Below, one piece after another: positions 5,571 to 39,139 of a DNA stretch of 44,753 nt (positions within the stretch are counted from its first letter, which is position 1; every line of letters begins with the position of its first letter). The translations under genes were made by a program, and so were the position numbers. This DNA comes from Candidatus Odinarchaeota archaeon. GTDB lineage: Archaea; Asgardarchaeota; Hermodarchaeia; Hermodarchaeales; Hermodarchaeaceae. The stretch covers positions 1-44,753 of the forward strand of contig JBHLQC010000001.1 of NCBI GenBank assembly GCA_048885185.1. The letters run 5' to 3'. The notes under the pieces are model-generated. The model made no database searches. It saw only the letters and a program-made list of their open reading frames with translations, and was not told the DNA's origin.

Positions 5571-7310
5571 TCACCTTTGGACTTTTCGTTTGAGATCACT
5601 CAGTAATTGGTTAGCTGTCTCAATTGGATCGGCATCAGAAACGTCATTAACTGATAGTTCTAGCTGGTTAGAGAAGTTATTCAAGTTAATTCGCCCAGAT
5701 AAATTGAGTTCCTTCCCAAGTAGAGTGTCTTCTACGCGTCGAACGGGTTCATCTTCGTTACCAGATTCTTCAATGATTGATTTAGCATCCTCTCCACTCA
5801 TTCCAAAGAGTTTCTCTGCAGAGTTCCCAATAAAACTAGCACGAATGTTTTCTGTTCCATCGTCTATGACGAGTTTTGCGATTAGTCGTGGTTCGGATTT
5901 TAGGATTTTACCACATTTGGGGCACGTAATTGATGAATTACTGATTGTAACTTTTTTGAAACACTTGGGACATGAATCATATACCGATTTTTGATGAATC
6001 ACTTGGACAACGGTTCCACGCACAGTCACAAAATTTCCTTCCGTCACATTTGCTAAAATTTGGTCAGGTGCTTCAGGCTTTCCAGAACTGATAAAATCAT
6101 TTGAAGGGCGTTTTATCTCGAGATTAGATGGATTGCGTGTAACTCGTGAAGATTCGTTAATGTGGATTTCAAGTTCTTGGCGAAGTCCAGCACGACAATT
6201 AATTCCTTCCAAAAGAAGGTGGGTTCCTACTTCGACATCAGCAAGGTTTTCAGCTGCTTGACCCCAAGCAACTGCACGAACTTTGGCTGTTTCATCAGCT
6301 AAAATGAATACAAGGCGTTTACCTTCTTGCCCATCACGTCGTGTGAATGTGCGTACACCTTGGTTTTCTAGGACTTTAACACCGATTGCACTTGAAAAAT
6401 CGCCAGCTGTTAGTTCTTTTAGAGCTTGTGGCTCTGAAGGTTGATCTTCAGGAGGTTGGTCTGTAGCACTTAGTTGGCGTAGTTGTCCACGACGACCTAA
6501 ATGTAATTCAGGTTCGTTATTCCGGTCCATTCGTACATATCCGCTTTCTATTCGAATTTTATCGTTTACTGATAATTTCTTAAACCATTCACTTTGTTCG
6601 TCCCATAATACTAGTCTGGTACGACCTGTCTCATCACGAATGGCCAAGCTTGCTACGCTTCCCTCAGAATCTCCTCGACTAAATGTGGAAACCCGATATT
6701 TGGCAATAATTATGCCTTCGACATGAACATCGCTCATTCCGGCTTCAAGTGACTTTAGTGGAGTTAGAGTAACTGCCACTTCGGGAAAGTCCTTTACGTC
6801 AACATCAGGTGGATTGATCATTATCCGACTTCCACTACCCAGATGGATTTCCAGTTGATCGCGAAGCCCAGTTCTTACTCTGCCATTTATTATTCGTAGG
6901 ATATCACCTTCATCGAATTCTTGATCTTCTATTGGTTTAGTATGATCATTCCAGAAAGTTACACGAATAGAACCGGTCGAATCGCTTCCCATGATATTGG
7001 CAACTTTCCCTTCTCCCCCTTGTTTTCGTTGAAATGTCCTAACTGGGAATATTCGAACAACTTTCAGATTCAGTGAAACTCCCGTCATTCCTGCAACTAA
7101 GTCACGAATAGACAGTTTTAGTTCAGGTGTAGGCTGCCTCTCAAAGAGATCAAGATCTAACTCCCGTGCTACAAGTGATGCAGCACCTTCGTCTGTCACA
7201 TAACCATCGAGTTCCTTCTTTTTTTCTTCAATCATTTGAAGGATTTCATCTTTGGATTTACCTGATTTATCGACTATTAGATCCACAATTTCAGCAAGTT
7301 TAAGTGGCAC
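5571..7310 (-). CDS. Replication protein A (RPA/RFA) with multiple OB folds and a C-terminal zinc finger
   Basis: 579 aa. Repeated OB-fold units are visible (VRIFPVRTFQRKQGGEGKVANI..., VSTFSRGDSEGSVASL..., VRTFTRRDGQEGKRLVF...), followed by CPKCFKK...CPKCGK. The N-terminus MPLKLAEIVD...DEGAASLVAREL is typical of archaeal RFA. Confidence 0.85.
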   Translation of the reverse strand: MPLKLAEIVDLIVDKSGKSKDEILQMIEEKKKELDGYVTDEGAASLVARELDLDLFERQPTPELKLSIRDLVAGMTGVSLNLKVVRIFPVRTFQRKQGGEGKVANIMGSDSTGSIRVTFWNDHTKPIEDQEFDEGDILRIINGRVRTGLRDQLEIHLGSGSRIMINPPDVDVKDFPEVAVTLTPLKSLEAGMSDVHVEGIIIAKYRVSTFSRGDSEGSVASLAIRDETGRTRLVLWDEQSEWFKKLSVNDKIRIESGYVRMDRNNEPELHLGRRGQLRQLSATDQPPEDQPSEPQALKELTAGDFSSAIGVKVLENQGVRTFTRRDGQEGKRLVFILADETAKVRAVAWGQAAENLADVEVGTHLLLEGINCRAGLRQELEIHINESSRVTRNPSNLEIKRPSNDFISSGKPEAPDQILANVTEGNFVTVRGTVVQVIHQKSVYDSCPKCFKKVTISNSSITCPKCGKILKSEPRLIAKLVIDDGTENIRASFIGNSAEKLFGMSGEDAKSIIEESGNEDEPVRRVEDTLLGKELNLSGRINLNNFSNQLELSVNDVSDADPIETANQLLSDLKRKVQR

Positions 7311-7412
7311 GCTTGAAAGCAGCCTCCCTGGTTAGATAAGATAATACCACAGGTTTCTACAAACAATGTTTTAAAAACATCCCTTCGTTACTCGAATAAG
7401 AGGCGCCTTAGT

Positions 7413-10226
7413 GTGGTTGAAGATATATTTAGTTTGCTGGATTCCCGGCTTTATGAGGAGCTTGTAAAGCAGGGATTTCAGACTCCAACACCAATACAAG
7501 TCCGTAGTATTCCACGGATACTTAGTGGTGAGTCCGTCTTACTGATTGCACCAACAGGGCATGGGAAAACAGAAGCGGCTTTTTTTCCCCTGATTCACCG
7601 CTTACTTGCATCTTCAAACCCCGTTGAAGGCGTTCAGATCTTGTGGATTACACCGCTTCGTGCCCTAAATAGAGATATTCTGAGACGATTGGTTCTCATC
7701 GCTCAACAACTTCAAATCAGTGTGGAAGTTCGTCATGGTGACACCCCATCCTCAACACGACGAAAACAGACTTTGAAACCACCTCAACTTTTCATTATCA
7801 CACCAGAAACCCTTCAGGCACTCTTAGCAGGGAAACGAATTCGAGAACACTTGCGAAATGTTCAGGGTGTGGTGATTGACGAAATTCATGAACTCGCGGC
7901 GAGTAAACGCGGAGTTCAATTAATGGTAGCCTTAGAAAGATTACGTGAGTTAACTGGATTATCCTTTCAACGAATTGGATTATCTGCCACAGTTGGCAAT
8001 CCAGAAGAAATCGGAGCATTCATGAGTGGTGGAGAAAATGTCGTAATTATTGAATCGCCTGCAAGAAAGGATTTTCATTTTTCCATTGAATATTGTCCAT
8101 TTTCTTACAAGGAATCTGATGAATCTCCTCTTGATGGTCCTGTTCGTAGGATATGGGAATTGGTTAGTCAACATACCTCAACTCTGATTTTTAGTAATGA
8201 ACGCCAGACAGCAGAAGCACTTGCCTTAAGATTAGCGAAACTTCATGGAGGAGATTCCGGAGTCCACCATGGATCACTCTCGCGCGAAGCCCGAGTTGAA
8301 GCTGAAAGGAAATTCAAAATGGGGACTGTACCCTATCTAGTTTGTACCTCATCTTTGGAACTAGGATTAGATATTGGTTCTGTGGATTTAGTAATTCAAT
8401 TCGGCTCGCCACGTCAGGTAGTTCGGCTATTGCAACGTGTCGGGCGATCAGGACACCGTTTAGACCGACGGTCTAAAGGCGTAATGATAACTACACGGTT
8501 TGATGATATCTGTGAAAGTTTAGTAGTAGCTCATCAATCTCTTAAGGGCCAGTTAGAAGTCCCGCCCATTCATAATAACGCGCTTGATATTGTTGCTCAT
8601 CAACTGGTTGGTCTGGCAATCGAATACAAAACCTTGTCATTTCCACAGGCATTTGATATAATAAAGCGGTCAACACCATATCAAGGACTTGAGCAGGATA
8701 CTTTCAATCAAATAGTGGGTTTTCTTCAGAAGGAGGGACTGCTAGCCCGTGATGATGTCATTTTAAGACCTCGACGAAAATCTTATGCCTATTACTTTGA
8801 AAATCTCTCAGTAATTCCTGACACACCTCATCACCGTGTTGTCAATGTTGCCACAAGCAGGCCTGTCGGTCGTTTGGATACTGGATTTGCAGAGGAATTT
8901 GGCCACACCGGTAATATTCTAGTTTTGCGTGGTCGACCATGGGAAGTTGTTAAGCAAGATGAAGAAAACGTATTCGTGACGCCTATTAACCAAACAAAGG
9001 GACGTATTCCTCGTTGGAGTGGAGAGCTAATACCGGTCTCGGAAAATGTTGTTAAAGCAGTTGCTGATCTTTGGATGTATATTGCAGAAAACGTCACTCA
9101 ACCCACCAATCTTGAGTTTGAAATTGCTGTTGATGAGCAAGCTAAAGAAGTAATGCTGAAAACCATCTCAAAACAGCAACAAGAAGAATTCATACCAGAT
9201 AAATCTACGATATTTATTGAAATAGGTCACGAGTTGGTGGTCATTCATTCATGTTACGGAACTCGAGTCAACGAGACGTTAGGCAGAATTCTGGCGGCTC
9301 TATTGACTTCTCAGCTAGGAATGGAAATCGCCTTTCATGCAGATCAATTTCGGATTCTGTTCCGATTTGAGCGAGGAGGTGGTCATCCAATTGGTGAGGC
9401 GATTTATGAAGGTTTACAATCACTTGACCCCGAGCATATCGTTGACCTATTGGAAATGATTTTGTTACGATCACCCTATTTTGCACGACGCTTTCTGCAT
9501 ATCGCTAGAAGATTTGGAGTCATTTCTCATGAAGCAAAACTTCGGAGCACTCAACTTCTTCGAATGATGCAATATTTTACGGAAACGCCCTTAATTGATG
9601 AGGCACTCCACGAATTTTACACTGACAAGCTAGATATTGAAAACACCCAAAGAATCGTAAATGCAATCCAAACAGGTGAAATCATCGTAAAGCGACTCTA
9701 CCAGAAACGACCGTCACCTTTTGCCCGTCAAATTCTAGCGCGATTTGGTGAATTTCTCGAACCTGAAATCCCTGAATCCTACATTCTTGAACAAACCAAA
9801 AATCGACTGTTGAACCGAAAAGTCCGATTAGTTTGTCTCCACTGTGGACAATGGGCAAGTGTCCGGACAATTAAACATTTGAAAGAGCACCCACAGTGCA
9901 AAAAATGTAAATCACGATTGATTGCAGGTGTTTTTCCCACCGATGAGCTTTTAGAGCAAGCTATTCGTCGCCACCGCGCTGGTATGAAACTCACTCCTGA
10001 AGAACAAAAGGCGTTACGGAAAGGACGAGAAAACGCTAATGTGGTTTTAAATTACGGAAAGCCAGCGCTGATTGCGATGGCGGGTCGTGGAATAGGACCG
10101 ACTGTCGTTAAACGAATTATGGCAGGAAGTCATGACCGACCTGAAAAAGAATTTTATCTTCTCATTTTAGAGAACGAAAAGCAGTTTATCAGAACACGGG
10201 AGTGGTGGACCGAACCTAAAATATAA
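7413..10226 (+). CDS. lhr: Lhr-type ATP-dependent DEAD/DEAH-box helicase
   Basis: 937 aa with motif I APTGHGKTEAA, motif II VVIDEIHEL, SAT, and motif VI QRVGRSGHR. The long C-terminal extension carries a CLHCG...CKKCKSR zinc ribbon, as in large archaeal Lhr helicases. Confidence 0.85.
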   Translation: MVEDIFSLLDSRLYEELVKQGFQTPTPIQVRSIPRILSGESVLLIAPTGHGKTEAAFFPLIHRLLASSNPVEGVQILWITPLRALNRDILRRLVLIAQQLQISVEVRHGDTPSSTRRKQTLKPPQLFIITPETLQALLAGKRIREHLRNVQGVVIDEIHELAASKRGVQLMVALERLRELTGLSFQRIGLSATVGNPEEIGAFMSGGENVVIIESPARKDFHFSIEYCPFSYKESDESPLDGPVRRIWELVSQHTSTLIFSNERQTAEALALRLAKLHGGDSGVHHGSLSREARVEAERKFKMGTVPYLVCTSSLELGLDIGSVDLVIQFGSPRQVVRLLQRVGRSGHRLDRRSKGVMITTRFDDICESLVVAHQSLKGQLEVPPIHNNALDIVAHQLVGLAIEYKTLSFPQAFDIIKRSTPYQGLEQDTFNQIVGFLQKEGLLARDDVILRPRRKSYAYYFENLSVIPDTPHHRVVNVATSRPVGRLDTGFAEEFGHTGNILVLRGRPWEVVKQDEENVFVTPINQTKGRIPRWSGELIPVSENVVKAVADLWMYIAENVTQPTNLEFEIAVDEQAKEVMLKTISKQQQEEFIPDKSTIFIEIGHELVVIHSCYGTRVNETLGRILAALLTSQLGMEIAFHADQFRILFRFERGGGHPIGEAIYEGLQSLDPEHIVDLLEMILLRSPYFARRFLHIARRFGVISHEAKLRSTQLLRMMQYFTETPLIDEALHEFYTDKLDIENTQRIVNAIQTGEIIVKRLYQKRPSPFARQILARFGEFLEPEIPESYILEQTKNRLLNRKVRLVCLHCGQWASVRTIKHLKEHPQCKKCKSRLIAGVFPTDELLEQAIRRHRAGMKLTPEEQKALRKGRENANVVLNYGKPALIAMAGRGIGPTVVKRIMAGSHDRPEKEFYLLILENEKQFIRTREWWTEPKI

Positions 10227-27100: not shown

Positions 27101-27197
27101 TGGCGCGGAGTAAGGGATTTGAACCCTTGCGACCACGAAGGTCACTGGATGACTCGTTCATCTCGAGTCCAGCGCGTTACCGCTCCGCCAACTCCGC
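27101..27197 (-). tRNA. tRNA-Ser(CGA), class II, with an 11-nt canonical intron, CCA encoded
   Basis: The minus strand reads GCGGAGT TG GCGG AGCGGTAA CGC G CTGGA CTCGAG|ATGAACGAGTC|A TCCAG TGACCTTCGTGGTCGC AAGGG TTCAAAT CCCTT ACTCCGC G CCA. The intron lies at 27151-27161. It has a long variable arm and discriminator G73. Confidence 0.85.
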
Positions 27198-27317: not shown

Positions 27318-28166
27318 TTGGTCCTCTCCAAAGATGTCAAGACAATTCAACGTGAATATAAAATCATTGGTCGCCAAGACCTTATTACGCAATGTCTAGC
27401 ATCCGATAAGGCAGATAAACACATGCTCATCGAAGGCCCAGTCGGTGTAGGGAAAACCACAATCGCCTCTGCCATTACTAATTTCTTGGGACGTTCATTT
27501 TTCCGTGTTGATGGAGATGAACGCTATACCTCAGCAAAGCTAGTGGGATGGTTCGATCCACCTGTTGTACTCAAAAACGGATATACTCGTGACACCTTCG
27601 TTCCAGGTCCTCTTGTAGAAACAATGGAAACAGGTGGAGTACTTTTCATTAATGAAATTAATCGTATGCCAGAAGCAACACAGAATACACTTCTTCCTGT
27701 CATGGACGAGGGAACGTTACACGTTCCAAAGCTAGGCACTATAAAAGCAAAAAATGGATTCCGAATAATTGCTACCCAAAATCCTGAGGCCAGCGTAGGT
27801 GTGACACCACTAGGAGAAGCTCTACGAGATCGATACATCTGGCTCTATCTTGACTATCATACTGAAAGCGAAGAAAAAGAAATCGTTCACATTAATACTG
27901 GAGTTGAAGATAAGGAAATCGTAGAATTGGCTGTGGCTATCACCCGGGCAACACGTGATTACACAGATATTCGTCGCGGGGCTAGTGTCCGGGGTGCCAT
28001 CGATATTACAAGCCTATACACACAACTCCCTGGTGAAGGTTACGATGTGTGGGAGCAAGCAGCCATCATGTCACTTGTCCCGAAAATTGAACTACACGAT
28101 GACGCGCAGAAATCTGCAATCGAGGTTATCAAAACACTAGTTAAAGCAGTGTTAGCAAATTTTTAA
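27318..28166 (+). CDS. MoxR/CbbQ-like AAA+ ATPase (AAA_5)
   Basis: 282 aa with Walker A LIEGPVGVGKTT and Walker B VLFINEINR, plus FRIIATQNP and LRDRY, all typical of the MoxR/NorQ/CbbQ clade. Confidence 0.85.
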   Translation: MVLSKDVKTIQREYKIIGRQDLITQCLASDKADKHMLIEGPVGVGKTTIASAITNFLGRSFFRVDGDERYTSAKLVGWFDPPVVLKNGYTRDTFVPGPLVETMETGGVLFINEINRMPEATQNTLLPVMDEGTLHVPKLGTIKAKNGFRIIATQNPEASVGVTPLGEALRDRYIWLYLDYHTESEEKEIVHINTGVEDKEIVELAVAITRATRDYTDIRRGASVRGAIDITSLYTQLPGEGYDVWEQAAIMSLVPKIELHDDAQKSAIEVIKTLVKAVLANF

Positions 28167-28195
28167 TCGCCGAGGAGGCCCCAGCCTCCGATGAC

Positions 28196-29236
28196 GTGCC
28201 CATCGTTCTCTCTGGAACCATCTCAGATGAGAAACTATTCGAATCTGAAATCAGAGCCAATGGACGTGATTTCCAATACTACCTCCGTTTAGGTCGAACA
28301 TTCGATTATCCCACTGCAAAAGAAATGGCAGAACTTGCCATTGAACAAAGAAATGTTACTGCTTTACAAGCACTCGCTCAACTCCAACCTATTGCCACAA
28401 GCGAAGCTATTTCAAGCCAAGACGGTGTTCATCTGATTGCAAAGTCTGCTTATGAAGGGAATGTTGCTGCACCACTCCTCTACTTTCAACTCCGACACCA
28501 AATTCGTGGACAATACCGCCAGAAATTTCGTGAGCTGGCCCGTGCTACCATAATTCATTCAGCTCTAAGAATCAGTGGTCGTGGATTGCGTCCTGAAACT
28601 ATCAAAACGGTCCCTTTTTACCCAGGACTTGACGAATTTGACCTTGATGCAACTTTGGAAGAAACACTCCTAGAACCTGACTATGTGAATTATAATGAAA
28701 TCGTCGGTGTCGAACGAGTAGCACGGAAAAAAATTGGCACAATCATTTTAGATACCTCCGGATCCATGGCCGGTACAAAACTCCTTACAGCTGCTACAGC
28801 AGCTGCTGTTGCTGCATATCACTTACGTCATGACAAGTATGCCTTTATTGCCTTCAACACCGTTGCTAGCACTATCAAAACCATCGATCAATCCAGTACA
28901 ATAGATTCTATCGTTGATACCATCCTTGACACTGAACCTGCTGGCTACACCAACATTGCCGATGCTCTAAAAACTGCATATACTCAATACCAACGTGCTC
29001 ACCGGCAAGAATCTTGGGCTATCCTCATCACTGATGGCATCGCCAACCGAGGTGGACCACCAGAGCCCCACGCACGGAAATATCATAATCTCCATGTATT
29101 ACAAACACCAGGTACACATCCGCAAGGTGAAGAAACCTGTCAGCAGATTGCCCAGCTTGGTAAGGGACGCTATATCAAAGTCAACTCATACACAGAGGTA
29201 CCTCGTGCCCTTATGCGGCTCTTACGCCAAACGTGA
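28196..29236 (+). CDS. von Willebrand factor A (VWA) domain protein, MoxR partner
   Basis: 346 aa with the MIDAS motif ILDTSGSMAG...T...ILITDG in the C-terminal half. It lies immediately downstream of the MoxR ATPase. Confidence 0.8.
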   Translation: MPIVLSGTISDEKLFESEIRANGRDFQYYLRLGRTFDYPTAKEMAELAIEQRNVTALQALAQLQPIATSEAISSQDGVHLIAKSAYEGNVAAPLLYFQLRHQIRGQYRQKFRELARATIIHSALRISGRGLRPETIKTVPFYPGLDEFDLDATLEETLLEPDYVNYNEIVGVERVARKKIGTIILDTSGSMAGTKLLTAATAAAVAAYHLRHDKYAFIAFNTVASTIKTIDQSSTIDSIVDTILDTEPAGYTNIADALKTAYTQYQRAHRQESWAILITDGIANRGGPPEPHARKYHNLHVLQTPGTHPQGEETCQQIAQLGKGRYIKVNSYTEVPRALMRLLRQT

Positions 29237-29476: not shown

Positions 29477-29554
29477 AGCGGGGTGGGGTAGCCAGGATAT
29501 CCCGCGGGGCTCATAACCCCGAGATCGGTTGTTCAAATCAGCCCCCCGCTACCA
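29477..29554 (+). tRNA. Initiator tRNA-Met(CAU), CCA encoded
   Basis: The structure reads AGCGGGG TG GGGT AGCCAGGATA TCCC G CGGGG CTCATAA CCCCG AGATC GGTTG TTCAAAT CAGCC CCCCGCT A CCA. The A1:U72 pair and three consecutive G:C pairs closing the anticodon stem are archaeal initiator hallmarks. Confidence 0.9.
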
Positions 29555-29731
29555 TTCTTTTTTCTATTAGAAGATTAAAATTATGAAGTGCAAAAAGTGC
29601 TGTTTAGATTTTCCAAATTTCAAAGAGTAGAAAAACTACCATTCCATCAAAATTAGAGTCCGAATACTCTTAAGACGTCTTGTCCTACTTTAACACGATC
29701 CTAGAGCTATACAACAGCAGGAACACCCCAA

Positions 29732-31474
29732 ATGATGTCAAAAAAGTCTAATCCCCAAGATAACAAATCTGATCATCAAAAGGATGAGATCTCTAAACGA
29801 TTTTCTCATATAGTCCAGACAATTAGAAATCGTTTAGCAGCAGAGCCGTTGGAAAACCACATTGCTATCCATTGGGAACCCTCACCAATTGTACTTGAAG
29901 GACCTCGATTTGGAGCCAGTTCTTATATTACTACAAATAATCGATCAATACTAGAACTCTCTGAAGAACTTCTTACAAATCGGATTGAATTTTTAGAACC
30001 AGTCCTTTGGCGTGAGGCATTCCTCATTCATTTACCCCGTATTATACGAGAAGTTCCTGAATCATCAGATCTGGGACTCTACTGTTACTATCGATACGGT
30101 TTAAGGACTTCAAAACAACGCCAAAAATTTCAACAATTATGGGAGAGTGTGTCCCCTCCACAAGGATACGAGTCCTATTATTATTACCCAGCTGCAGGGT
30201 TTTCCATTTTTGATAGAAGCGTTAATGGCACATTCCTTCAAATGGTCTTGGAATGGTTTGAACCATTCAAAGAATCATCCATCCAGATATCCTCTCAGAT
30301 GTTCACAGCCAATCTTGAAAGATGGATTTTCAACCACCATATCATCCTTCAACCCATTGAGTTGAAAATTCTTAGAGGGTTGAACGATTGTCTAAGTTGT
30401 ACACAAAAACAACTTGCTAAAATCTTAGATCTTCGCCAACCCACAGTAAGTCGCGTTATTAAATCACTTGCAAAGAAGCACCTTCTTCGATTTTTGGTGT
30501 ATGAAAACTATCCGGTATTAGGACTCTTACCCATAACAGTTCAATTCTCTTCTAACAATCTTGGAGTTATCAATTCAATCAAAAAAATTGCCAGAAAAAT
30601 TAGGTATACACTCATCATCCAAGAATTTGCTGACAGTATTTTCATCTCATTCGCTATCCCGAAGGAAAGAATCACACGGTTACGACAGTGGATAAAACAA
30701 GTATCCGCCAAGTATGATCTCCCTCCTCCAAAAATTTATTCTACAATAGAACGGGTAAATTCGAAGAACTTTGAAATTTATAATCAAGATGAAGGTGGTT
30801 GGCCCAACGATTATGAAACAATCCTTGAAAATATCTTCAGAATAATAAAGGAAGAATGGGCCCTCCACATCCCTCCTCTTAACGTCTTTAAGTATTCACT
30901 TTCACGTGCTACGAAATCTATAACACTTCAACCACAAGATTTCGTTTATATGCAGAGGGCAACAGAGGCATTTTTGGTAACAAGTCAAGCACGTTTTTAT
31001 GAATCACAAGAAGCACGAAAAGCAGGTTATCGAGAATCAGAACACATGACCTATAGACGCCGTGTAGAATTTCTAAACCAACACAACATAATGAGTCAAC
31101 CAATGGGAATAGCAATAATGCATATCGGATTAAATGATGCCGTGAATGTTTTTCTTGAAACACCCTATGATGAAACAAAAGCAATTATTTCAGCCTTTCA
31201 ATTGTTTCCATCTGTTGGTGCAAGGATTTATGACAACGGATCAGGAAGCATTATGATTCTTCTACCTAGTGGAACAGCAGTTTCAACCCAAACATCTTTA
31301 CGTGAATTTTTTGGAGAGCTGGGTTATCCTATTAAGATAGCTATCAGACCAGCATGGAAATCATTTGGTTGGGTAACTGGTAATCCTATTATTCCAAATA
31401 ACTATGATTTTGATAGGGAAAAATGGATTTGGACTAAAGACACTTTACCAACGCTATCATCTGATAATTGGTAA
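29732..31474 (+). CDS. Uncharacterised 580-aa protein: novel N-domain plus two Lrp/AsnC-like (HTH + RAM-like) modules
   Basis: It is a paralogue of 31899-33632. The HTH is ELKILRGLNDCLSCTQKQLAKILDLRQPTVSRVIKSLAKKHLLRF, followed by a beta-alpha-beta-like segment. A second, degenerate module lies at about aa 400-567. I could not match the N-terminal ~205 aa to any family. Confidence 0.6.
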   Translation: MMSKKSNPQDNKSDHQKDEISKRFSHIVQTIRNRLAAEPLENHIAIHWEPSPIVLEGPRFGASSYITTNNRSILELSEELLTNRIEFLEPVLWREAFLIHLPRIIREVPESSDLGLYCYYRYGLRTSKQRQKFQQLWESVSPPQGYESYYYYPAAGFSIFDRSVNGTFLQMVLEWFEPFKESSIQISSQMFTANLERWIFNHHIILQPIELKILRGLNDCLSCTQKQLAKILDLRQPTVSRVIKSLAKKHLLRFLVYENYPVLGLLPITVQFSSNNLGVINSIKKIARKIRYTLIIQEFADSIFISFAIPKERITRLRQWIKQVSAKYDLPPPKIYSTIERVNSKNFEIYNQDEGGWPNDYETILENIFRIIKEEWALHIPPLNVFKYSLSRATKSITLQPQDFVYMQRATEAFLVTSQARFYESQEARKAGYRESEHMTYRRRVEFLNQHNIMSQPMGIAIMHIGLNDAVNVFLETPYDETKAIISAFQLFPSVGARIYDNGSGSIMILLPSGTAVSTQTSLREFFGELGYPIKIAIRPAWKSFGWVTGNPIIPNNYDFDREKWIWTKDTLPTLSSDNW

Positions 31475-31602
31475 TATATAATCACCAAAAGTGACAAATC
31501 AGAATGTAAAAAAATGCCAATTTTGGTCTCTTTTTCATTCAAGTTTTTGTATTTTGGTTTAGGGCTTTTTATGGAATATCTCAACGATTAACTTAGCGAT
31601 TA

Positions 31603-31739
31603 ATGGAGGTAAATCCACCATGCAATGGCCCCCTGTTCGACCTGAACCAACCCCTTAGGTTATTAATTAGCCCCATTATGGAGTTAAATCCATAATACAA
31701 TGGCCCCCTATTCGACCTTATCCGGATCCTTAGATTCTA
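31603..31739 (+). repeat. Two-copy direct tandem repeat, 75-nt period
   Basis: Copy 1 starts at 31603: atggaggtaaatccaccatgcaatggccccctgttcgacct. Copy 2 starts at 31678: atggagttaaatccataatacaatggccccctattcgacct. My hand alignment gives 36/41 identical in the core and 48/62 over the extended alignment. Confidence 0.8.
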
Positions 31740-31796
31740 TAATTGTCAAATGAACTAATTGACACAATTTTTCTTGTTCCCGAAGTTAGATAATCT

Positions 31797-31834
31797 GGAA
31801 CCCGGGTTTTGGGTTCCTTCCTTTTTTCTTTTTC
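31797..31834 (+). terminator. Hairpin plus oligo-T tract (terminator-like)
   Basis: GGAACCC (31797-31803) pairs perfectly with GGGTTCC (31811-31817). The T-rich run ttccttttttctttttc follows. It sits about 325 nt after the upstream stop codon and 65 nt before the next start. Confidence 0.45.
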
Positions 31835-31898
31835 ATTGTAGTTGAATGGTTATCGGAAGGTAGAATTAGGTGATATCCTAAGATATTCAAAATAATCT

Positions 31899-33632
31899 GT
31901 GGATGAGTTGACCATTTCTCAGGTTAATTCCAATTCAATTTGGTCCCAGTTTCGGGTGTTACAGGAACGAATTGCAGCTTTAGTTAATGTAAAACCTTTA
32001 CCTCGAGTTCGTGATCGAATTACTCAATTACAATTTGCCCCAAAACGGTTGAAATTTGTAGAACCTCGATTTGGTACCACTGAAATACCCTCCGAGAAAG
32101 GATCTCGAAGTGGATGGACGGTTACTCTTTCAGAAGACCTCAAAATAGATTCTCCTCATATTTTATCATGGGTTTTGTGGCGAGAAGCATTTCTCAGCTA
32201 TCTTGTGCCTAATATACGTCAAATTCCGGAAACCGCGGACTTGGGCCTTTATGCAGGTTTAAAATTCGGTGAATATAGCATAGAAGAAAAGAAACTTCTT
32301 TCAGAATTGTGGAGTCGTGTGTCCCCAACACAATACTATTTGTATTACAACTATGATGCGCCTTTCGGGTTTCCCATATTCGACCAAGTGGTTAGCGACT
32401 CCTTCCTTCATCGCGTCCTACTCTGGCTGAACTCTATGCGCCTAAGCAGCTTCCAACCGATCTCTTCCTCCACCTATACCGAGGCCTTAGAGAGATGGAT
32501 GCAGGAAACCCATAACCCCTTAACAAAAACCGAAGTACGAATTCTCAACGCACTTTGTACAATTGAACAGTTCTCTCAGAGCCAATTAGCCAAGAAATTA
32601 AATCTTAGCGATTCCGCAATCAGCCAAGCTCTCAACAGATTATCTCGAAGACACCTGCTCAGGATTTTTTCATTCATCAATCTTCCTTTAATGGGACTAA
32701 TTCCTTTAGAAGTTAAACTTCAAGTTATAGATAGGATACAAAAAAGACGAATTACCACATTACTATCAAAAATCCAATATATTGACTTCATCATCGATAC
32801 CAACCAATTCTTGATATCTAGATTCGTAATACCTCACAATCGTGTAGACGAATTTAAGAACTGGATTTTCAAATTTGCATCTAAAGAAAATCTACCTACA
32901 ATCGATGTGTACCAGGATATGTGTCAACTTTTCCATTGGAATTTTAATACGTATATTCCAGAAAAGGGGTGGCCCACCGATTTTACAGTTCAACTAAATC
33001 ATTTTCAATCATCAATACTTGGAAATCAAGATTCCAGTGAACCACCACTGAAAAGCCACAGCTACTCCTATGATCTCCTCCTTAATGACCAACAAACCTT
33101 CCCAATTAAGCTACGTCAAGAAGATTTTACTTACTTCAGACGCTCATCAGAAATCTTTCGAACAACAGAACGTGTAACACCAAGGCCATCACAAGAGGTT
33201 CGCAAAGCTGGTCTCTTAGAAACAACTCACATGAGCTATCGAAGACGTGTACAAAAACTCGAAAATCAACAAATCAGCATCATGGGAGGATTTTGGTTAC
33301 AGCACATTAATCTCGATACAATGGTTCATCTCCTTATCTTTGAACCTTGGGAGACATCCGAGCAAATAATGAGAGCATTGCAATTATTCCCATTTATTAA
33401 TGGAAGAATCTTAGAAAACGGAAATGGATATGTCCTCATCCAGATACCAAATCAAAATGCTGTTGATACACTTTCTACACTGAGAGAAACCATCGTTGGA
33501 ATGGGGATAGACGTACACATCAGTATTAATCCTGCATGGCAGACCTTAACGGACTTTGAACCACCCTTAAGGTCTTCGAATTATGATTTTAAAAACAGCG
33601 AATGGAAATGGGATGCTCACACTTTACCATAA
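31899..33632 (+). CDS. Uncharacterised 577-aa protein, tandem paralogue of 29732-31474
   Basis: Blocks shared with the paralogue: EPRFG, VLWREAFL, PE..DLGLY, LW..VSP.Q, F.IFD, ALERW. The HTH is EVRILNALCTIEQFSQSQLAKKLNLSDSAISQALNRLSRRHLLRI. It also shares MSYRRRVQKLE and the C-terminal NYDFKNSEWKW. The start codon is GTG. Confidence 0.6.
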   Translation: MDELTISQVNSNSIWSQFRVLQERIAALVNVKPLPRVRDRITQLQFAPKRLKFVEPRFGTTEIPSEKGSRSGWTVTLSEDLKIDSPHILSWVLWREAFLSYLVPNIRQIPETADLGLYAGLKFGEYSIEEKKLLSELWSRVSPTQYYLYYNYDAPFGFPIFDQVVSDSFLHRVLLWLNSMRLSSFQPISSSTYTEALERWMQETHNPLTKTEVRILNALCTIEQFSQSQLAKKLNLSDSAISQALNRLSRRHLLRIFSFINLPLMGLIPLEVKLQVIDRIQKRRITTLLSKIQYIDFIIDTNQFLISRFVIPHNRVDEFKNWIFKFASKENLPTIDVYQDMCQLFHWNFNTYIPEKGWPTDFTVQLNHFQSSILGNQDSSEPPLKSHSYSYDLLLNDQQTFPIKLRQEDFTYFRRSSEIFRTTERVTPRPSQEVRKAGLLETTHMSYRRRVQKLENQQISIMGGFWLQHINLDTMVHLLIFEPWETSEQIMRALQLFPFINGRILENGNGYVLIQIPNQNAVDTLSTLRETIVGMGIDVHISINPAWQTLTDFEPPLRSSNYDFKNSEWKWDAHTLP

Positions 33633-33653
33633 TTTCCCCATTAAAAAAAGGGT

Positions 33654-33671
33654 GAAGGCAATAATGCCTTC
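33654..33671 (+). terminator. Perfect 7-bp hairpin just downstream of the 577-aa gene
   Basis: GAAGGCA ataa TGCCTTC lies 22 nt after the stop and is preceded by an A-run. No strong T-tract follows, so a terminator role is uncertain. Confidence 0.35.
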
Positions 33672-33933
33672 AAATTACAAGCCTGGAGTGGGACGAATTC
33701 GTGGATAACTCATTTATTGGATACCTCCAACAATTTTGATGTTTAATGAATAAGTTTTGGAATCCTCTTTAAACCAAAAAAACCACATGCAAAAAATGGT
33801 TCAATTTTTGTCAATCTTTGTGAATTTTTTCTAGAGGCTAGAACTGAAATGAGCGTTGATTTTCAATGATAGTCATATTTACAACCGAATTTTAGAAAAG
33901 CAATAATGACATAGGCTTGTTTGGCGAACGAGT

Positions 33934-35478
33934 TTGTCTGTAGAAGACTCTGATGTTCAATCTGCTATTACGAAACTGCTGAGAGCGGGATTTCAAATCA
34001 GCCCAGCAACATTGCAAATGCTTCAAAAAGTGTCTAACCCCCACCAAATTGTTGAGAAATTTCTCACCTCTGACGTTGTACACCCAACTGACACACCCGT
34101 TCTCGAACCAAGCCATTTTGACATCCCTCAGGAGAAACCATCAGATTCAATCCAAGAAGACCTGCCACAAGAACCCCAAATCCCTCAACTTACTCATCCT
34201 AGATTCCAAGCAGAGGGTGTAAAAGCGAGAATAAAAATCCGTAAGGATCCAACACCTCAATTACAGAGCAAAGGAACTGTAGAAGATTTCGTGTCAAATT
34301 TTCAGGATCGCTATTACCGTTTACGAGATATCATCTCACAACGGGTGGACGGAAAGGGAGTTATTGACATAAATGAGGTGGCAGAGGGAAATAACACTCA
34401 AGAAAAGGGAAAGACTCCCACTGTAAAAATTGTAGGATTAGTCACCAATAAAACTCCAACAAAAAGTGGAAATATTGCGCTCGAATTGGAAGATCCATCT
34501 GGAAGTATCTCTGTAATTGTTCAGCAACGTGATCCAAGCTTGTTTTCAAAGGCGCGTCTTGTGTTACTCGACCAAGCCTTATGCGTTGAGGGAGCTTTGG
34601 TTAGTTCAGAAATGATGATTGCTAATGATCTATTCTTACCAGATATTCCATCAAACAGAAGAAATAATCGAGCGACAGAACCGGTCAGTGCCCTCCTGCT
34701 ATCAGATATTCATTTTGGAAGCCGGAATTTTCTTGAAAAAATATTTCAACGAGTACTTGATTGGCTTCAAGGGAAAGAAGGTGATGAGGAACACGTTGAA
34801 CTGGCTAGCACTGTAAAATATATCGTCATTAATGGTGATCTTGTCGACGGTATAGGAGTCTACCCAAATCAAATTGCAGAAATTACACTCTTTGATCTTG
34901 ATAGTCAATTTGTCGGGCTAACCAAACTTCTTCAACAAATCCCCTCTCACATACATCTCTTAATTGCTCCAGGAAATCATGATGGAGTTCGATTGGCGAT
35001 TCCCCGACCTGCAATCGAAGACCGCTTTTTAGCTCCGTTAAAAGATTCGGGATTACAAGTAGCGTCTCTCGGGTGTCCTTCACACGTGAGCTTGCATGAT
35101 GTGAACTTGTTGATCTACCATGGTGATAGCCTCGTCGATATAATGGCTGCACTTTCAAAACCGGAGTTGGAAGCAAGTTTTGCAGCAATGAGAGAGATGC
35201 TCCGAGGACGCCATCTTGCTCCCATATATGGGAAGAGTACAACAATCGTTGCTGAACCACGAGATTGGCTCGTCATTGATGAGGTACCAGATATTCTTCA
35301 TTGTGGTCATGTCCATGTAACTAGCGTTGGCAGTTACCGAAAAACCCTGATTCTGAATTCAGGAACGTTTCAAAGCCAAACGGATTATCAACGATTGATA
35401 GGTATAGAACCTACACCCGGAATTGTTCCTCTTGTTAATTTGCAAACCCTCAATGTGAAAACATTGAATTTTACTTAG
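33934..35478 (+). CDS. polB: DNA polymerase II (PolD) small subunit DP1
   Basis: 514 aa with an OB-fold segment (VKIVGLVTNKTPTKSGNIALELEDPSG) and calcineurin-like phosphoesterase motifs (LSDIHFGS, NGDLVDG, PGNHD, YHGD, CGHVH). The start codon is TTG. Confidence 0.9.
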   Translation: MSVEDSDVQSAITKLLRAGFQISPATLQMLQKVSNPHQIVEKFLTSDVVHPTDTPVLEPSHFDIPQEKPSDSIQEDLPQEPQIPQLTHPRFQAEGVKARIKIRKDPTPQLQSKGTVEDFVSNFQDRYYRLRDIISQRVDGKGVIDINEVAEGNNTQEKGKTPTVKIVGLVTNKTPTKSGNIALELEDPSGSISVIVQQRDPSLFSKARLVLLDQALCVEGALVSSEMMIANDLFLPDIPSNRRNNRATEPVSALLLSDIHFGSRNFLEKIFQRVLDWLQGKEGDEEHVELASTVKYIVINGDLVDGIGVYPNQIAEITLFDLDSQFVGLTKLLQQIPSHIHLLIAPGNHDGVRLAIPRPAIEDRFLAPLKDSGLQVASLGCPSHVSLHDVNLLIYHGDSLVDIMAALSKPELEASFAAMREMLRGRHLAPIYGKSTTIVAEPRDWLVIDEVPDILHCGHVHVTSVGSYRKTLILNSGTFQSQTDYQRLIGIEPTPGIVPLVNLQTLNVKTLNFT

Positions 35479-36075: not shown

Positions 36076-37374
36076 CTATTTATCCGGGGTTGCTGGAACA
36101 TAACTTGAGAGAGCCTTAATACGACTATCTCGTTCTAATACATCTGCAATCATTGTTTTCGGGACACTTAACCGGATAATTTTGGTTCGTCCATATCGTC
36201 CTTTACTTACAACTTTAGCATTAACTACTCCAATAGCATCCAAATCATTGATGAGATCACTAACCCGACGCTGGGTTAAAGGATCCATACCTAACTGTGA
36301 GCAAAAGTCTCCGTACACATCTTGTACCTCTCCTGTAACTGGATGTGGATGTTTGTGACGTTCTAATACATACACAGCATAAAGGACAAGTTTCTGTTGG
36401 ACAGGTAATGTCCGTAGTACTTCAAGAACAGTATCACGTTCAATGCTTAAACGTGCCTTTTCAACATGATCAACTTTTACCTCTTTACTTCCCTCACGTT
36501 CAGCAATTTCTACTGCTACACGAAATAGATCAAGAGCCCGTCGTGCGTCACCTTCTTCACGTGCAGCCAAGGCAGCACATAGGTTGATTACTCCTGGTTC
36601 TTCTAAGATACCATTTTTCAGTCCATGAGAACTTCGACGCCGAAGAATATCTTGTAGTTGTAATGCAGTGTAAGGATGAAAAATGACCTTCTCCTCACTT
36701 AAGCTACTCAACACCCGAGGATCAAGATACTCAGGGAAGCGAAGATCATTGGAGATTCCGATTAAACTGACACGAGCACTCGTAAGATCATAATTAATTC
36801 GAGTCAACTTATAGAGCGTGTCATCACCGCTCTTCAAAACTAAACGGTCGATTTCGTCGAGTACAATAATGGTTAAGAGATCTTGGCTTTCTAGCAACTC
36901 GATCAGGCGTGAATGAACTTCATCAGTTGGCAGCCCTGTAAACGGAACTTTTTGACCCAACTCCGCACAGATGCGCGCCAATACACGATAATCTGTATCC
37001 ACATTCCGGCAATTCAAATATACAGCTTTGAAGGGTAACTGGAGTTCACCAAACTTAGTAGTTAATTCCCGGAGAACATACCGAGTCACTGCTGTTTTTC
37101 CAGTTCCTGGTTTACCATAGACAAAAACATTCGATGGGCGACTCCCCTTCAAGCCCGTCGCTAATATACCTCCGATTTGCGTAATCTGTTCTTCACGATG
37201 GGGAAGGTCATCTGGAACATAAGAATGCCAAAGAACTTTACGATCACGAATAAGAGTTGGACCAGTACTAAAACGTTCGAAAATCCTGTCCAAAGGCCGT
37301 GGGTCATCCATGTGATAGCTGTCCTCCAGGAGGCTCCCATAGGAAATACTAGCGTTTCTTTTGGAAGTGCACAC
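36076..37374 (-). CDS. cdc6: Orc1/Cdc6 replication initiator
   Basis: It has Walker A VYGKPGTGKTA, Walker B IIVLDEIDRL, the sensor block GDARRALDLFRVA, and a C-terminal winged helix. The track start is GTG 37374. ATG 37311 (MDDPRPLDRIF), with GGAGG 12 nt upstream, is more plausible. Confidence 0.95.
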   Translation of the reverse strand: MCTSKRNASISYGSLLEDSYHMDDPRPLDRIFERFSTGPTLIRDRKVLWHSYVPDDLPHREEQITQIGGILATGLKGSRPSNVFVYGKPGTGKTAVTRYVLRELTTKFGELQLPFKAVYLNCRNVDTDYRVLARICAELGQKVPFTGLPTDEVHSRLIELLESQDLLTIIVLDEIDRLVLKSGDDTLYKLTRINYDLTSARVSLIGISNDLRFPEYLDPRVLSSLSEEKVIFHPYTALQLQDILRRRSSHGLKNGILEEPGVINLCAALAAREEGDARRALDLFRVAVEIAEREGSKEVKVDHVEKARLSIERDTVLEVLRTLPVQQKLVLYAVYVLERHKHPHPVTGEVQDVYGDFCSQLGMDPLTQRRVSDLINDLDAIGVVNAKVVSKGRYGRTKIIRLSVPKTMIADVLERDSRIKALSSYVPATPDK

Positions 37375-37556
37375 ACCTCCAATATTAGGGTTTCGCAGAA
37401 ATAGTTCTTATCAACTATTCCTTTCAATAAACAAAGTTTAATTTGTTCACAATTGGCGCGTTACTTGTGAACTTCTATTATCATAAATTGATTTAGAGCT
37501 CGTTTTTCTCGTAAAAACAGCCAAATTTAGTATATTTTCTAATCAACAAACACTCA

Positions 37557-37577
37557 CCCCTTTATTTCCACTGGAAC
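37557..37577 (-). promoter_or_regulatory. Origin recognition box ORB1
   Basis: The plus strand reads cccctttatttccactggaac, which is GTTCCAGTGGAAATAAAGGGG on the minus strand. This matches my memory of the archaeal ORB (TTCCAGTGGAAA dyad plus G-string). Confidence 0.8.
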
Positions 37578-37882
37578 TATCCAATTAAGGCTTAAATTCT
37601 TAGAAATTGTAATGAACCCGTGAAGAAACTGTGAACACCTTCTAACTATGGAGAAATTCCTTGAAATAGAAAAAGAAAACCGGAGATAACGTATTTTACA
37701 TAACTAACCAAAACAATCAGAAGAACGCTTTAAATGATAATAGAACTGAAGCAAGTAGAACCAAATAATTAATCAGTGATGCAACACACTCTCTCTTCAC
37801 ACCGTCACACTTTTATTACTGTGAACACGCCTCTCTAGTGGGGACATGGAGAGCCAGCTAGTCACCAGTGGGTGACCCTCCC

Positions 37883-38338
37883 ATGAAAAAACGGAAACAA
37901 AAGATCACCATCGAAGGACTTACCATCGAAGGAAAAACTTGTGACGTAACTATAACTTTTACAGATGGATTACCCTCTTCCATCACCGAATCTTTGGTCA
38001 CAGCTCTCAGTCAATCCGGCACAGAGGTTCCGGCTCACGAGCCCACAACTGAGATACAATCCCTTGATGATGTGGATTCCTGGACTGTGTTTCAAAAAGT
38101 CCGATATATTACTCTTCGTCACTGTCGTCACGGCTGGTTCACTTCTAAAGATATCCAAGAACTCTATGAAAGATCCTTCCACCCACCTCTACGACTAGCC
38201 ACGGCCTCACAATACCTCAAAAGAATGCATGACAATGGTACTCTTACACGTCGTGGATCAGCTGCCCAACGCGAGTATAGAGTTAACATCGAAGACTTAA
38301 CAGAAGAAATTGCTGCTATCCTGGCTACAAAAGTCTAA
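37883..38338 (+). CDS. Small winged-helix protein encoded inside the origin
   Basis: 151 aa counted from ATG 37883; the track ORF starts at GTG 37868. The C-terminal WFTSKDIQELYE...LATASQYLKRMHDNGTLTRRGSAAQREYRV is wHTH-like. A GGTGA Shine-Dalgarno-like sequence lies 7 nt upstream of the ATG. Confidence 0.6.
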   Translation: MKKRKQKITIEGLTIEGKTCDVTITFTDGLPSSITESLVTALSQSGTEVPAHEPTTEIQSLDDVDSWTVFQKVRYITLRHCRHGWFTSKDIQELYERSFHPPLRLATASQYLKRMHDNGTLTRRGSAAQREYRVNIEDLTEEIAAILATKV

Positions 38339-38470: not shown

Positions 38471-38490
38471 CCCCTTTATTTCCACTGGAA
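38471..38490 (-). promoter_or_regulatory. Origin recognition box ORB2
   Basis: The sequence cccctttatttccactggaa is identical over 20 nt to ORB1 and has the same orientation. Confidence 0.8.
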
Positions 38491-38674
38491 GTCGAAGGAC
38501 AAAAAAAGTTTGGTCTTGTTTATATATAATTCGAAGAATCTTCCCCAGTTGTTTTCTATTATTGTTATATTAATACTTTACCTTCTCTAACACGTTTTCT
38601 TTAATAGTATAGAAGCTGTTTTTGCGCATTTTCCACTTATTTGAAAGGGTAACAAAAAATCCGACTAAAAAGAA
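38491..38674. other. Putative duplex unwinding element between inverted ORB2 and ORB3
   Basis: This is a 184-nt non-coding stretch with about 29% G+C by my hand count (54/184). It contains tatatata and A/T runs and is bracketed by inverted ORBs. Confidence 0.6.
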
Positions 38675-38695
38675 GTTCCAGTGGAAATTAAGGGG
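38675..38695 (+). promoter_or_regulatory. Origin recognition box ORB3 (inverted relative to ORB1/2)
   Basis: The plus strand reads gttccagtggaaattaagggg. Confidence 0.8.
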
Positions 38696-38708
38696 TATAC
38701 CTAGTCTC

Positions 38709-39002: not shown

Positions 39003-39057
39003 AATACCACAACTCTACGTCTAGATAATTTACGGTTATTTATATTAGTTGTGGATA

Positions 39058-39071
39058 ATTTCCACTGGAAC
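39058..39071 (-). promoter_or_regulatory. Mini-ORB4 (dyad core only, no G-string)
   Basis: The plus strand reads atttccactggaac, which is GTTCCAGTGGAAAT on the minus strand. TATCCAC follows in place of a G-run. Confidence 0.6.
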
Positions 39072-39139
39072 TTAATAAATTCAATGAAATAAATGAGTTT
39101 CAGAAAGTAGAAAAAAAGCGAACAACTAATGAAAAATGC

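Follow-up and report, generated by a model that had tools for sequence, protein, structure and literature searches.

The gene pair at positions 29732 to 33632 of contig JBHLQC010000001.1 from Candidatus Odinarchaeota archaeon raises two questions, namely what kind of protein the two genes encode and what occupies the spacers around them. The pair lies within the 44,753-nt stretch of DNA analyzed here (positions 1 to 44,753 of the contig, hereafter the window), and consists of paralogue A (29732–31474, plus strand, 580 aa, ATG start) and paralogue B (31899–33632, plus strand, 577 aa, GTG start). An initial annotation of this DNA had described two tandem, same-strand genes of an unrecognized family, homologous over their full length and otherwise diverged, and its coordinates and lengths for both were exact. 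When A was compared with B by BLASTP, 35% of 542 aligned residues were identical and 53% positive (E = 4e-99). The aligned region begins near residue 45 and reaches the C-terminus, which makes A and B full-length paralogues. The start position of B is supported by its orthologues, which keep ATG or GTG followed by GAT GG at the equivalent place. The motif blocks previously listed as shared are real, with small slips in two of them (NLERW and TYRRRV in A; ALERW and SYRRRV in B). In an alignment of 63 family members, 31 columns were invariant, and the invariant or nearly invariant residues included R59 F60, W93 R94 E95, D113 G115, W137 S141, F157, E196, R442 R443, and W565.

Domain architecture of A and B

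From the alignment of 63 sequences, A was modeled with AlphaFold2 (predicted local distance difference test score, pLDDT, 90.2; predicted template modeling score, pTM, 0.86), and the model divides the protein into an orphan N-terminal domain (aa 1–204; 29732–30343), a first winged helix-turn-helix (wHTH1, aa ~205–258; 30344–30505), a first RAM domain (RAM1, aa ~262–346; 30515–30769), a linker or insert (aa 347–395), a second wHTH (wHTH2, aa ~396–455; 30917–31096) with the recognition helix HMTYRRRV, a second RAM domain (RAM2, aa ~465–545; 31124–31366), and a C-terminal tail carrying NYDF..W.W. B has the same architecture, its N-terminal domain covering aa 1–206 (31899–32516). RAM1 is composed in the model of a strand (265–273), a helix (277–288), two strands (293–299 and 302–310), a helix (311–327), and a strand (334–345), and the same pattern of secondary structure recurs at 469–540. 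Judging from the model and from profile comparisons, residues ~205–545 are two predicted Lrp/AsnC-type modules, each a wHTH followed by a RAM domain, in one chain. A single A or B chain would then be the equivalent of an Lrp dimer. The layout is shared with the fused siroheme decarboxylase NirDL and with double-Lrp regulators.

Several comparisons point to this assignment. A Foldseek search of the PDB with the A model retrieved siroheme decarboxylase NirDL (4ch7; E = 4.7e-7, 364 columns) and dozens of single Lrp/AsnC proteins, each matching one module with a probability of 1.0. The family profile aligned with the Pyrococcus Lrp/AsnC-family protein PH0061 over wHTH and RAM (profile positions 199–333, PH0061 residues 2–142; E = 6.7e-7), and module 1 aligned in register with module 2 in hhalign (E = 5.7e-4). 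In an exhaustive profile search, hundreds of two-module Lrp proteins of 310–390 aa, bearing AsnC-type HTH and RAM Pfam domains, matched positions ~204–326 twice. The most conserved stretch of the entire protein, ES.HM.YRRRV, lies in module 2 at the position of the recognition helix.

Pfam and NCBIfam matched only the wHTH (~aa 205–255), as MarR, MarR_2, or HTH_24 type (E ~1e-6). These matches lie at aa ~208–254 in A and B (aa 210–253 for the MarR/HTH match in A), and the curated Pfam cut-off was reached or exceeded by MarR in A and by MarR_2 in B. They do not place the proteins in the MarR family proper, which comprises proteins of ~140–150 aa with the wHTH between dimerization helices; the match covers ~45 HTH residues (profile positions 1–50 of 59), and outside these residues the 580-aa chain adopts a fold unlike MarR. 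An AsnC/MarR-like wHTH at the N-terminal side of the module is present, and a RAM domain directly follows it in the model and in the PH0061 profile alignment, whereas the Pfam RAM model (PF01037) recognized neither module, so that membership of Lrp/AsnC is supported at the superfamily level only. The description of the family as unrecognized consequently needs to be divided: it holds for the N-terminal domain of ~205 aa, and not for the C-terminal two-thirds, the tandem Lrp/AsnC-type wHTH and RAM domains. A DNA-binding role, also suggested at that stage, is plausible.

Among known systems, the closest likeness is to the Lrp/AsnC proteins (feast/famine regulatory proteins, FFRP), such as PH0061, FL11/PH1519, ST1022, and E. 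coli Lrp, in which a wHTH is likewise followed by a β-α-β-β-α-β RAM domain. By analogy with these, effector-modulated DNA binding would be expected of A and B. Unlike them, A and B fuse both modules in a chain of ~580 aa together with a 204-aa N-terminal domain, an insert of ~50 aa, and a conserved C-terminal tail; module 2 is too diverged for Pfam, and the family is restricted to Asgard archaea.

NirDL brings in a different possibility, namely an enzymatic role of A and B of the kind seen in siroheme decarboxylase (NirDL/AhbAB). It is the best full-length structural match, NirDL/AhbA-AhbB (4ch7, 4czc) being the only solved structure that aligns over both modules of A, and AhbA/AhbB and NirD/L/G/H are also pairs of Lrp-like paralogues with the same module structure. 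However, the superposition is poor (TM-score only 0.49; root-mean-square deviation, rmsd, 13 Å), and the Pfam model NirdL-like_HTH (PF22451) matched neither A nor B. NirDL is an enzyme of heme and heme d1 biosynthesis, and no ahb/nir, heme, or d1 biosynthesis genes were found in any of ~20 neighborhoods of the family. Moreover, the 204-aa N-terminal domain and the 50-aa insert are foreign to the NirDL family, and the recognition helices of A and B are still basic and conserved. We consider an enzymatic role of this type very improbable.

The N-terminal domain was searched by its own sequence and with two profiles, one of the close family and one of 33 members of the broad family; none of the three queries gave a sequence match in Pfam, NCBIfam, PHROGs, PADLOC, or the PDB. 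A word-indexed search with its profile returned five short proteins and nothing else; these could be truncated or split members of this family, so the domain was not seen in other architectures. In agreement with the initial annotation, no well-characterized family was reached by profile searches, and weak zincin-like fold hints were all that emerged. Modeled alone, the domain gave a pLDDT of 91.3, and none of its structural matches reached E = 0.001. The PDB matches were selecase, jannalysin, and anthrax lethal factor (E 0.18–0.7), and those in BFVD were SprT-like, IrrE-like, and lethal factor proteins (E ~0.02, probability up to 0.96). Zincin-type metalloproteases thus stood at or near the top in both independent libraries, as weak matches (E 0.02–0.7, TM-scores 0.3–0.4) with no sequence-profile support. 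In the domain, a long helix precedes a three-stranded sheet, after which come a helix with W-R-E-A and a helix with D-L-G-L-Y. In our own topology comparison this order resembles the minimal zincin scaffold of the minigluzincins (selecase, jannalysin) and SprT-like proteins, in which a backing helix, a three-stranded sheet, the 'active-site' helix, and a following helix would correspond.

An active metalloprotease of the IrrE/ImmA type, cleaving a partner repressor or the micropeptides described below, would agree with these fold matches to SprT, IrrE, and minigluzincins, and the order of protease, HTH, and sensor domain recalls IrrE. However, neither HExxH nor a conserved His was found in the 63 close members or in the 48 distant ones, conserved Cys was likewise absent from the more than 100 members, and the helix equivalent to the zincin active-site helix reads W-R-E-A-x-L. 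The domain also differs from minigluzincins and SprT-like zincins in lacking the third metal ligand and in having ~90 additional helical residues. R-E-A and D-L are its most conserved positions across the 48 distant relatives, and E95, D113, W137, and Y151 are nearly invariant in the broadest alignment. A functional protease is, in our view, extremely unlikely. Because the metal-binding histidines are absent, the domain is most likely a binding or sensor module rather than a protease; it is an orphan, possibly a degenerate zincin-like binding module, and not a member of any protease family. IrrE/PprI and MtPrpR (COG2856 zincin-like domain, HTH, and ligand domain) would share with A and B the joining of a zincin-like module to an HTH and a small-molecule sensor domain. 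They differ in showing no detectable sequence relationship and a weak fold match (E 0.02–0.7), and in having an XRE HTH and a GAF sensor where A and B have a winged helix and RAM. In the transcription factor MtPrpR, an IrrE-like domain without HEXXH uses its cavity for a ligand (PMC6765138).

Micro-ORFs and other elements in the spacers

The three spacers flanking the pair measure 177, 424, and 301 nt, as initially reported, and had been taken to be non-coding. Two of the three were found to hold conserved micro-open reading frames (micro-ORFs), and the unusual length of the spacers is explained by the conserved micro-genes and promoters that occupy them. In close relatives the A–B spacer is 86–88% identical in pairwise comparison vs. 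69–72% at the third codon positions of A and B, which indicates that the spacer is under selection. In distant loci (loci fetched from related genomes are denoted by L numbers), the spacer has a common layout: TTTTTGCA, ~10 nt, a TATA box (TTTAAA or TTTATA), ~45 nt, the Shine-Dalgarno (SD) sequence GGAGG, ATG, the ORF, and a G+C-rich hairpin with a T-tract. GGAGG starts 13–16 nt before ATG or, rarely, TTG in all copies, leaving a gap of 8–11 nt, and the micro-ORFs have 10–13 codons.

In the window, the A–B spacer contains mu1a (31605–31658, plus strand), with SD GGAGG at 31605–31609, ATG at 31620, and 12 codons plus a stop ending at 31658, and it would encode the peptide MQWPPVRPEPTP. A TATA-like box, CTTTTTATGG (31565–31574, plus strand), lies upstream and is preceded by a T-rich element, GTTTTTGTAT (31543–31552, plus strand); a promoter role for the box is suggested by the layout common to distant loci. 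A mu1-type micro-ORF, M(x)[WYF]PPxRP[DE]Px, was present in the A–B spacer of every other Hermodarchaeota-type locus. A second copy, mu1b (31695–31733, plus strand), arose by duplication of the mu1 unit in tandem (75 nt), visible as a 59-nt repeat (31603–31661 and 31678–31736). This copy is the orthologue of the single copy in L004–L006 (MQWPPIRPYPDP); in the window its SD now reads GGAGT and its ATG now ATA, and it is probably decaying. L007 shares the duplication, and there too the second copy is without SD and ATG and, in addition, carries a frameshift. The loss of SD and ATG together from the older copy is the behavior expected of a redundant coding gene. Readings of the 59-nt repeat as an origin recognition box (ORB)-like element or as an operator pair were considered and rejected, as distant loci show a unit of SD and micro-ORF.

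The spacer downstream of B contains mu2 (33675–33728, minus strand), convergent with B, with SD GGAGG at 33728–33724, ATG at 33713–33711, and 12 codons plus a stop ending at 33675; the predicted peptide is MSYPRIRPTPGL. Its putative promoter region (33767–33795, minus strand), with TTTTTGCA at 33795–33788 and GGTTTAAAG at 33775–33767, has the same layout as the mu1 promoters. A minus-strand micro-ORF was located directly 3' of B in 16 of 16 loci with sequence there, with mu2-type peptides reading MYP[PAQ]R[DP]PFP[SCY], MYPPQHPFPY, or MSYPRIRPxPGL, and in ~15 genomes B is bracketed by mu1 and mu2.

Conserved residues of the micro-ORFs are encoded by varied synonymous codons (all four Pro codons; CGA, CGT, and AGG for Arg; GAT and GAC for Asp; TAT and TAC for Tyr), which argues that selection acts on the peptide. 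The motif in combination with GGAGG occurred 24 times in 349 kb and not once in any of 30 shuffles, and a looser motif scan without the SD filter gave a single match away from an A/B gene. Few other genes of the window are preceded by a full GGAGG. An SD with a start codon, a maintained frame, and amino-acid-conserving substitutions, the features of small-protein genes, were all observed for mu1 and mu2. By these sequence features, mu1 and mu2 are coding micro-genes under peptide-level selection, with predicted transcription and translation. A scan of metagenomes with a degenerate pattern of SD, ATG, and Pro was too loose, returning one true micro-ORF, located between A and B genes, among at least 120 loci, and it is uninformative on micro-ORFs elsewhere.

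In the divergent locus L021, B is inverted relative to A, and still has a sense micro-ORF upstream and a convergent micro-ORF downstream; A of L021 has a micro-ORF upstream as well, as does A in L018 and L019. A further micro-ORF subtype, MNYLTSHPVPDVSL and MEFPPSCPVPDVNL, was read by eye in the A–B spacers of L017 and L020. In L018, the most divergent pair-bearing locus, the micro-ORF 3' of B (8020–7946, minus strand) is an in-frame internal duplication, MYPPSRPDGGPN-NYPPSRPDGGPN.

Downstream of mu1, a hairpin (GGAACCC-GGGTTTT-GGGTTCC, 31797–31817) followed by a T-rich tract (31818–31838) forms a likely terminator of the mu1 transcript (31797–31838, plus strand). The hairpin is invariant in five close genomes, and distant genomes have an equivalent hairpin and T-tract; a compensatory change from A:U to C:G was seen in 4 of 10 sequences, and the stems of L016 and L017 are wholly different. 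A terminator-like hairpin also follows mu2 (GAAGGCA-TTAT-TGCCTTC at 33671–33654, then T7 at 33649–33643; 33640–33671, minus strand) and is kept in L004–L007. In most of the distant loci analyzed, the SD in the mu2 leader is predicted to pair with an upstream GCCUCC-like stretch (z-scores of -1.7 to -4.8), and in the group of the window the AUG is predicted to be paired instead; this folding hints at translational control. RNAalifold predicted long-range pairing in the conserved spacer with no compensatory changes, the sequences being too similar. A riboswitch or attenuator structure was not adopted for the spacer, as RNAalifold gave no covariation. An Rfam scan of the whole window, and a permissive one of the A–B spacer, returned only tRNAs and chance-level matches.

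B and A appear to have promoters of their own. The element ATCGGAAGGTAGAATTA (31852–31868, plus strand), ~30 nt before the start of B, is a candidate TFB-recognition element (BRE)/TATA box plus regulatory site of the B promoter, and is retained down to loci in which the A protein is only ~45–50% identical. In an upstream alignment of 17 loci, CCGAATACTCTTAAGAC (GAATACT(C/A)TTAAGA; 29660–29676, plus strand) was recognized ~60 nt before A as a candidate BRE/TATA for A. A further block, TAGAAAAACT(C/A)C, also found as (A)TAGAAAAACTCCAC, lies ~95–100 nt before A (29630–29645), with equivalents in 14 loci. In many loci the TAGAAAAACTCCAC block is preceded by GC(A/C)G(T/C)CGCGTCA, and the block may serve as an operator or mark where an upstream transcript ends.

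The proline-rich composition of the micro-ORFs and their position before a hairpin allow another explanation, in which they have no separate role as peptide products and work in cis, through ribosome arrest or as sensor peptides. Translation of W/Y-P-P-x-R-P-D/E-P would depend on aIF5A and Pro-tRNA, and a stalled or fast-moving ribosome would determine if transcription stops at the hairpin and T-tract or continues past them. Transcripts continuing from mu1 would contain B in sense, and those continuing from mu2 would contain B in antisense orientation. B expression would in this way follow translational status, with A and B serving as ordinary regulators that respond to this signal. Bacterial polyproline sensors are grouped with such eIF5A/EF-P-dependent proline-rich regulatory ORFs. 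The motifs PP, RP, DP, and EP are of the kind that requires eIF5A/EF-P, and aIF5A is universal in archaea (PMC6105217). Eukaryotic AZIN1 uses a conserved upstream coding region (uCC) ending in PPW in this way, and the mu ORFs resemble it in being short conserved coding regions with Pro-Pro beside an aromatic residue (PMC9788402). In further agreement, a same-strand micro-ORF precedes a paralogue gene by ~170–240 nt in the window (mu1 and B), L018 and L019 (A), and L021 (A and the inverted B, B'), a hairpin and T-tract always lie between mu1 and B, and mu2 5' leaders are predicted to sequester the SD or AUG, with z down to -4.8. In contrast to the AZIN1 uCC, the mu ORFs have their own predicted TATA box, SD, and terminator, and one of them is convergent with the gene that it would regulate. 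Further, B has its own strongly conserved promoter-like element past the terminator, the interval from micro-ORF stop to hairpin varies (20–100 nt, and in sequence) with no conserved antiterminator seen, mu2 has no sense gene downstream, and RNAalifold found no covariation for a long-range structure. In several lineages the micro-ORF is also duplicated in tandem, as would be expected of a peptide gene more than of a leader peptide. Taken with these observations, the cis-acting explanation is possible, although rather doubtful.

Proposed function of the pair and its micro-genes

The reading that we propose for the locus as a whole, and to which we assign an even chance, is that A and B are regulators that bind DNA in response to an effector and are linked in function to the proline-rich micro-genes. 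Together with these, the pair forms a conserved module of four genes, A, mu1, B, and then mu2 facing back to B. A and B would bind DNA in the manner of feast/famine regulators through two winged helices, the second having the invariant basic recognition helix HMxYRRRV, and the two paralogues would probably act together, perhaps as hetero-oligomers. The mu genes, predicted to be independently transcribed from one promoter layout and to encode proline-rich peptides of 10–13 residues, would be controlled by A and B at their promoters, as would A and B at their own. Feedback could be provided by the peptides, bound by the N-terminal domain or the RAM domains, or by the ability of the ribosome to translate them.

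Several observations weigh against this proposal. No operator for A or B was identified; TTTTTGCA does not qualify as a specific operator word, occurring 8 times in the window vs. 4 expected, which is not significant. NirDL/AhbAB illustrate that the fold can be an enzyme. The Pfam RAM model PF01037 matched neither A nor B, many B-type orthologues have no precomputed HTH match, and the zincin-like matches of the N-terminal domain are all above E = 0.01. With regard to the micro-genes, none were found beside the distant family members in L003 (Odinarchaeia), L022, and L023.

A more specific form of the proposal, which we regard as unlikely, is an intracellular peptide-signaling circuit. Peptide output would be set by the capacity for polyproline translation (aIF5A/hypusine, polyamine, Pro-tRNA), and the peptides would be ligands of the paralogues, one type for each, held in the groove of the degenerate zincin-like N-terminal domain and switching DNA binding of the double-Lrp body. 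The arrangement recalls the RRNPP systems (Phr/PapR/NprX peptides), in which the gene for a DNA-binding receptor likewise stands beside one or more tiny peptide genes, sometimes duplicated in tandem. RRNPP peptides are made as secreted precursors of ~40 aa and sensed by TPR domains in Firmicutes. Unlike these, the micro-ORFs at A and B have 10–13 codons and no signal sequence, the host is archaeal, the putative receptor has an unrelated fold, and peptide binding is hypothetical. If such a circuit exists, it would represent a new kind of peptide-sensing transcription factor, and the archaea most closely related to eukaryotes would possess a parallel to the eukaryotic regulatory ORFs that sense eIF5A and polyamines.

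Database names for family members are 'Lrp family', 'MarR family', or 'hypothetical', and the N-terminal domain is not covered by any Pfam model. Literature searches on the family, on Asgard Lrp-like factors, and on archaeal proline-rich micro-ORFs turned up no account of the family or of the micro-ORFs. What is new in the proteins is that an Lrp-type regulator carries a novel fused domain and has both modules in a single chain; this architecture corrects the labels 'MarR family regulator' and 'hypothetical protein'. The proline-rich micro-genes around B are less expected than the proteins and lend themselves most directly to testing. If the proposal is correct, A and B represent an Asgard-wide uncharacterized family of transcription factors with a double Lrp body and an orphan N-terminal domain, maybe a dead protease, and the Hermodarchaeota possess a four-gene module of which two micro-genes are not called by annotation pipelines. 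Gene regulation in Asgard archaea is little known, and conserved peptide genes of 10–13 codons with canonical signals are rare and testable entry points to it. Long 'non-coding' spacers in compact archaeal genomes can thus conceal coding genes.

Distribution, gene order, and the probable replication origin

Full-length relatives of A or B formed ~100 clusters at 90% identity, and an exhaustive search added 48 distant representatives of 480–600 aa with the same architecture, family proteins being typically ~520–620 aa. All named members were from Asgard archaea (Hermodarchaeota, Thorarchaeota, Hodarchaeota, Odinarchaeia, Lokiarchaeota, Asgardarchaeia, and 'Promethearchaeota'). The closest matches in genome collections, with 80% identity for A, were from Candidatus Hermodarchaeum yapensis and a metagenome-assembled genome labeled Promethearchaeota. 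A followed by B on the same strand was found in 17 of 17 fetched loci with room for both, from ~15 distinct Hermodarchaeota-type genomes. Orthologues were 41–85% identical vs. 30–35% for paralogues, and being closer to each other than the paralogues are, they place the duplication before the divergence of these lineages. The pair belongs to a block conserved in ~15 genomes (Orc1/Cdc6, DUF2240, DP1, PhoU, MoxR, VWA, A, B), which is rearranged among genomes; A and B were never parted in pair-bearing loci.

The initial annotation had seen an accessory look in this region, and in the stronger form of that idea the region would be a lineage-specific insert of fast-evolving ORFs with no conserved role. 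In its favor, GC content is slightly lower here (0.36–0.40 vs. ~0.42–0.45 otherwise), and in close relatives A and B show ~80% amino-acid identity vs. 96–99% for their neighbors. Identity at third codon positions, compared with four close relatives, was also lower for A, B, and DP1 (64–73%) than for IleRS, PhoU, MoxR, VWA, DUF2240, and Orc1 (80–88%), and the A–B–DP1 segment (29732–35478) therefore has a deeper or different history, e.g., recombination or a locally higher rate. However, the pair and its micro-genes keep their order even where the A proteins are only 41–52% identical, orthologues are closer than paralogues, 31 columns are invariant among 63 sequences, and the models are confident. 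The conserved block is, in addition, proximal to the probable replication origin, which argues for core chromosome and not an accessory island. Synteny and conservation effectively refute the insert, to which we give next to no probability.

This probable origin is marked by four near-identical, canonical archaeal ORB repeats, TTCCAGTGGAAAT(T/A)AAGGGG, at 37556–37578 (minus), 38471–38490 (minus), 38674–38696 (plus), and 39056–39073 (minus), which flank a small ORF (37868–38338) and adjoin the Orc1/Cdc6 gene (36076–37374, minus strand); this region is very probably a chromosomal replication origin. The A/B pair lies ~4 kb from the repeats, with DP1 and Orc1 adjoining. A second, divergent Orc1/Cdc6 gene, ~30% identical to that of the window, directly follows B in L012 (4532–5632), L015 (14373–15473), and L016 (14335–15474), and the distant family member of Odinarchaeia (L003) is 2.2 kb from an Orc1/Cdc6 gene. 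All of this could suggest that A and B serve the origin, as chromatin or replication proteins and not as transcription regulators, binding DNA near oriC or working with Orc1/Cdc6 and PolD. However, such linkage can also arise simply because gene order near origins is conserved between related genomes, and the distant members L022 and L023 have unrelated neighbors. Moreover, ORB-like repeats are absent from the spacers around A and B, and the fold is that of metabolite-sensing regulators. A role at the origin is accordingly improbable.

Of the immediate neighbors, DP1 downstream was identified correctly from the start, its orthologues containing DNA_pol_E_B and Metallophos domains. Genes for a MoxR-type AAA+ ATPase and a VWA protein (27318–29236 in the window) adjoin A–B even in inverted blocks (L002, L013, L014); no functional link of the MoxR/VWA genes to A–B was found. 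A search for a defense-system or viral origin of A and B gave generic HTH-level matches alone. The upstream neighbor is tRNA-Met (CAT) (29477–29554, plus strand), called by ARAGORN and missed by the Rfam gathering scan; its A1:U72 and three G:C pairs beside the anticodon loop fit an initiator tRNA, as first annotated. The tRNA is context and not part of the module, as it lies between VWA and A in close relatives only. In L007, an insertion of ~2 kb between the initiator tRNA and A (5800–7830) encodes two paralogous proteins of ~275 aa; both have a signal-like segment at the N-terminus and are anchored by a transmembrane segment at the C-terminus. Further upstream in the window, at 27101–27197 on the minus strand, ARAGORN called a 97-nt 'tRNA-His' with anticodon ATG, which had an Rfam tRNA score of 53 bits and is probably an intron-containing tRNA with a mis-called anticodon.

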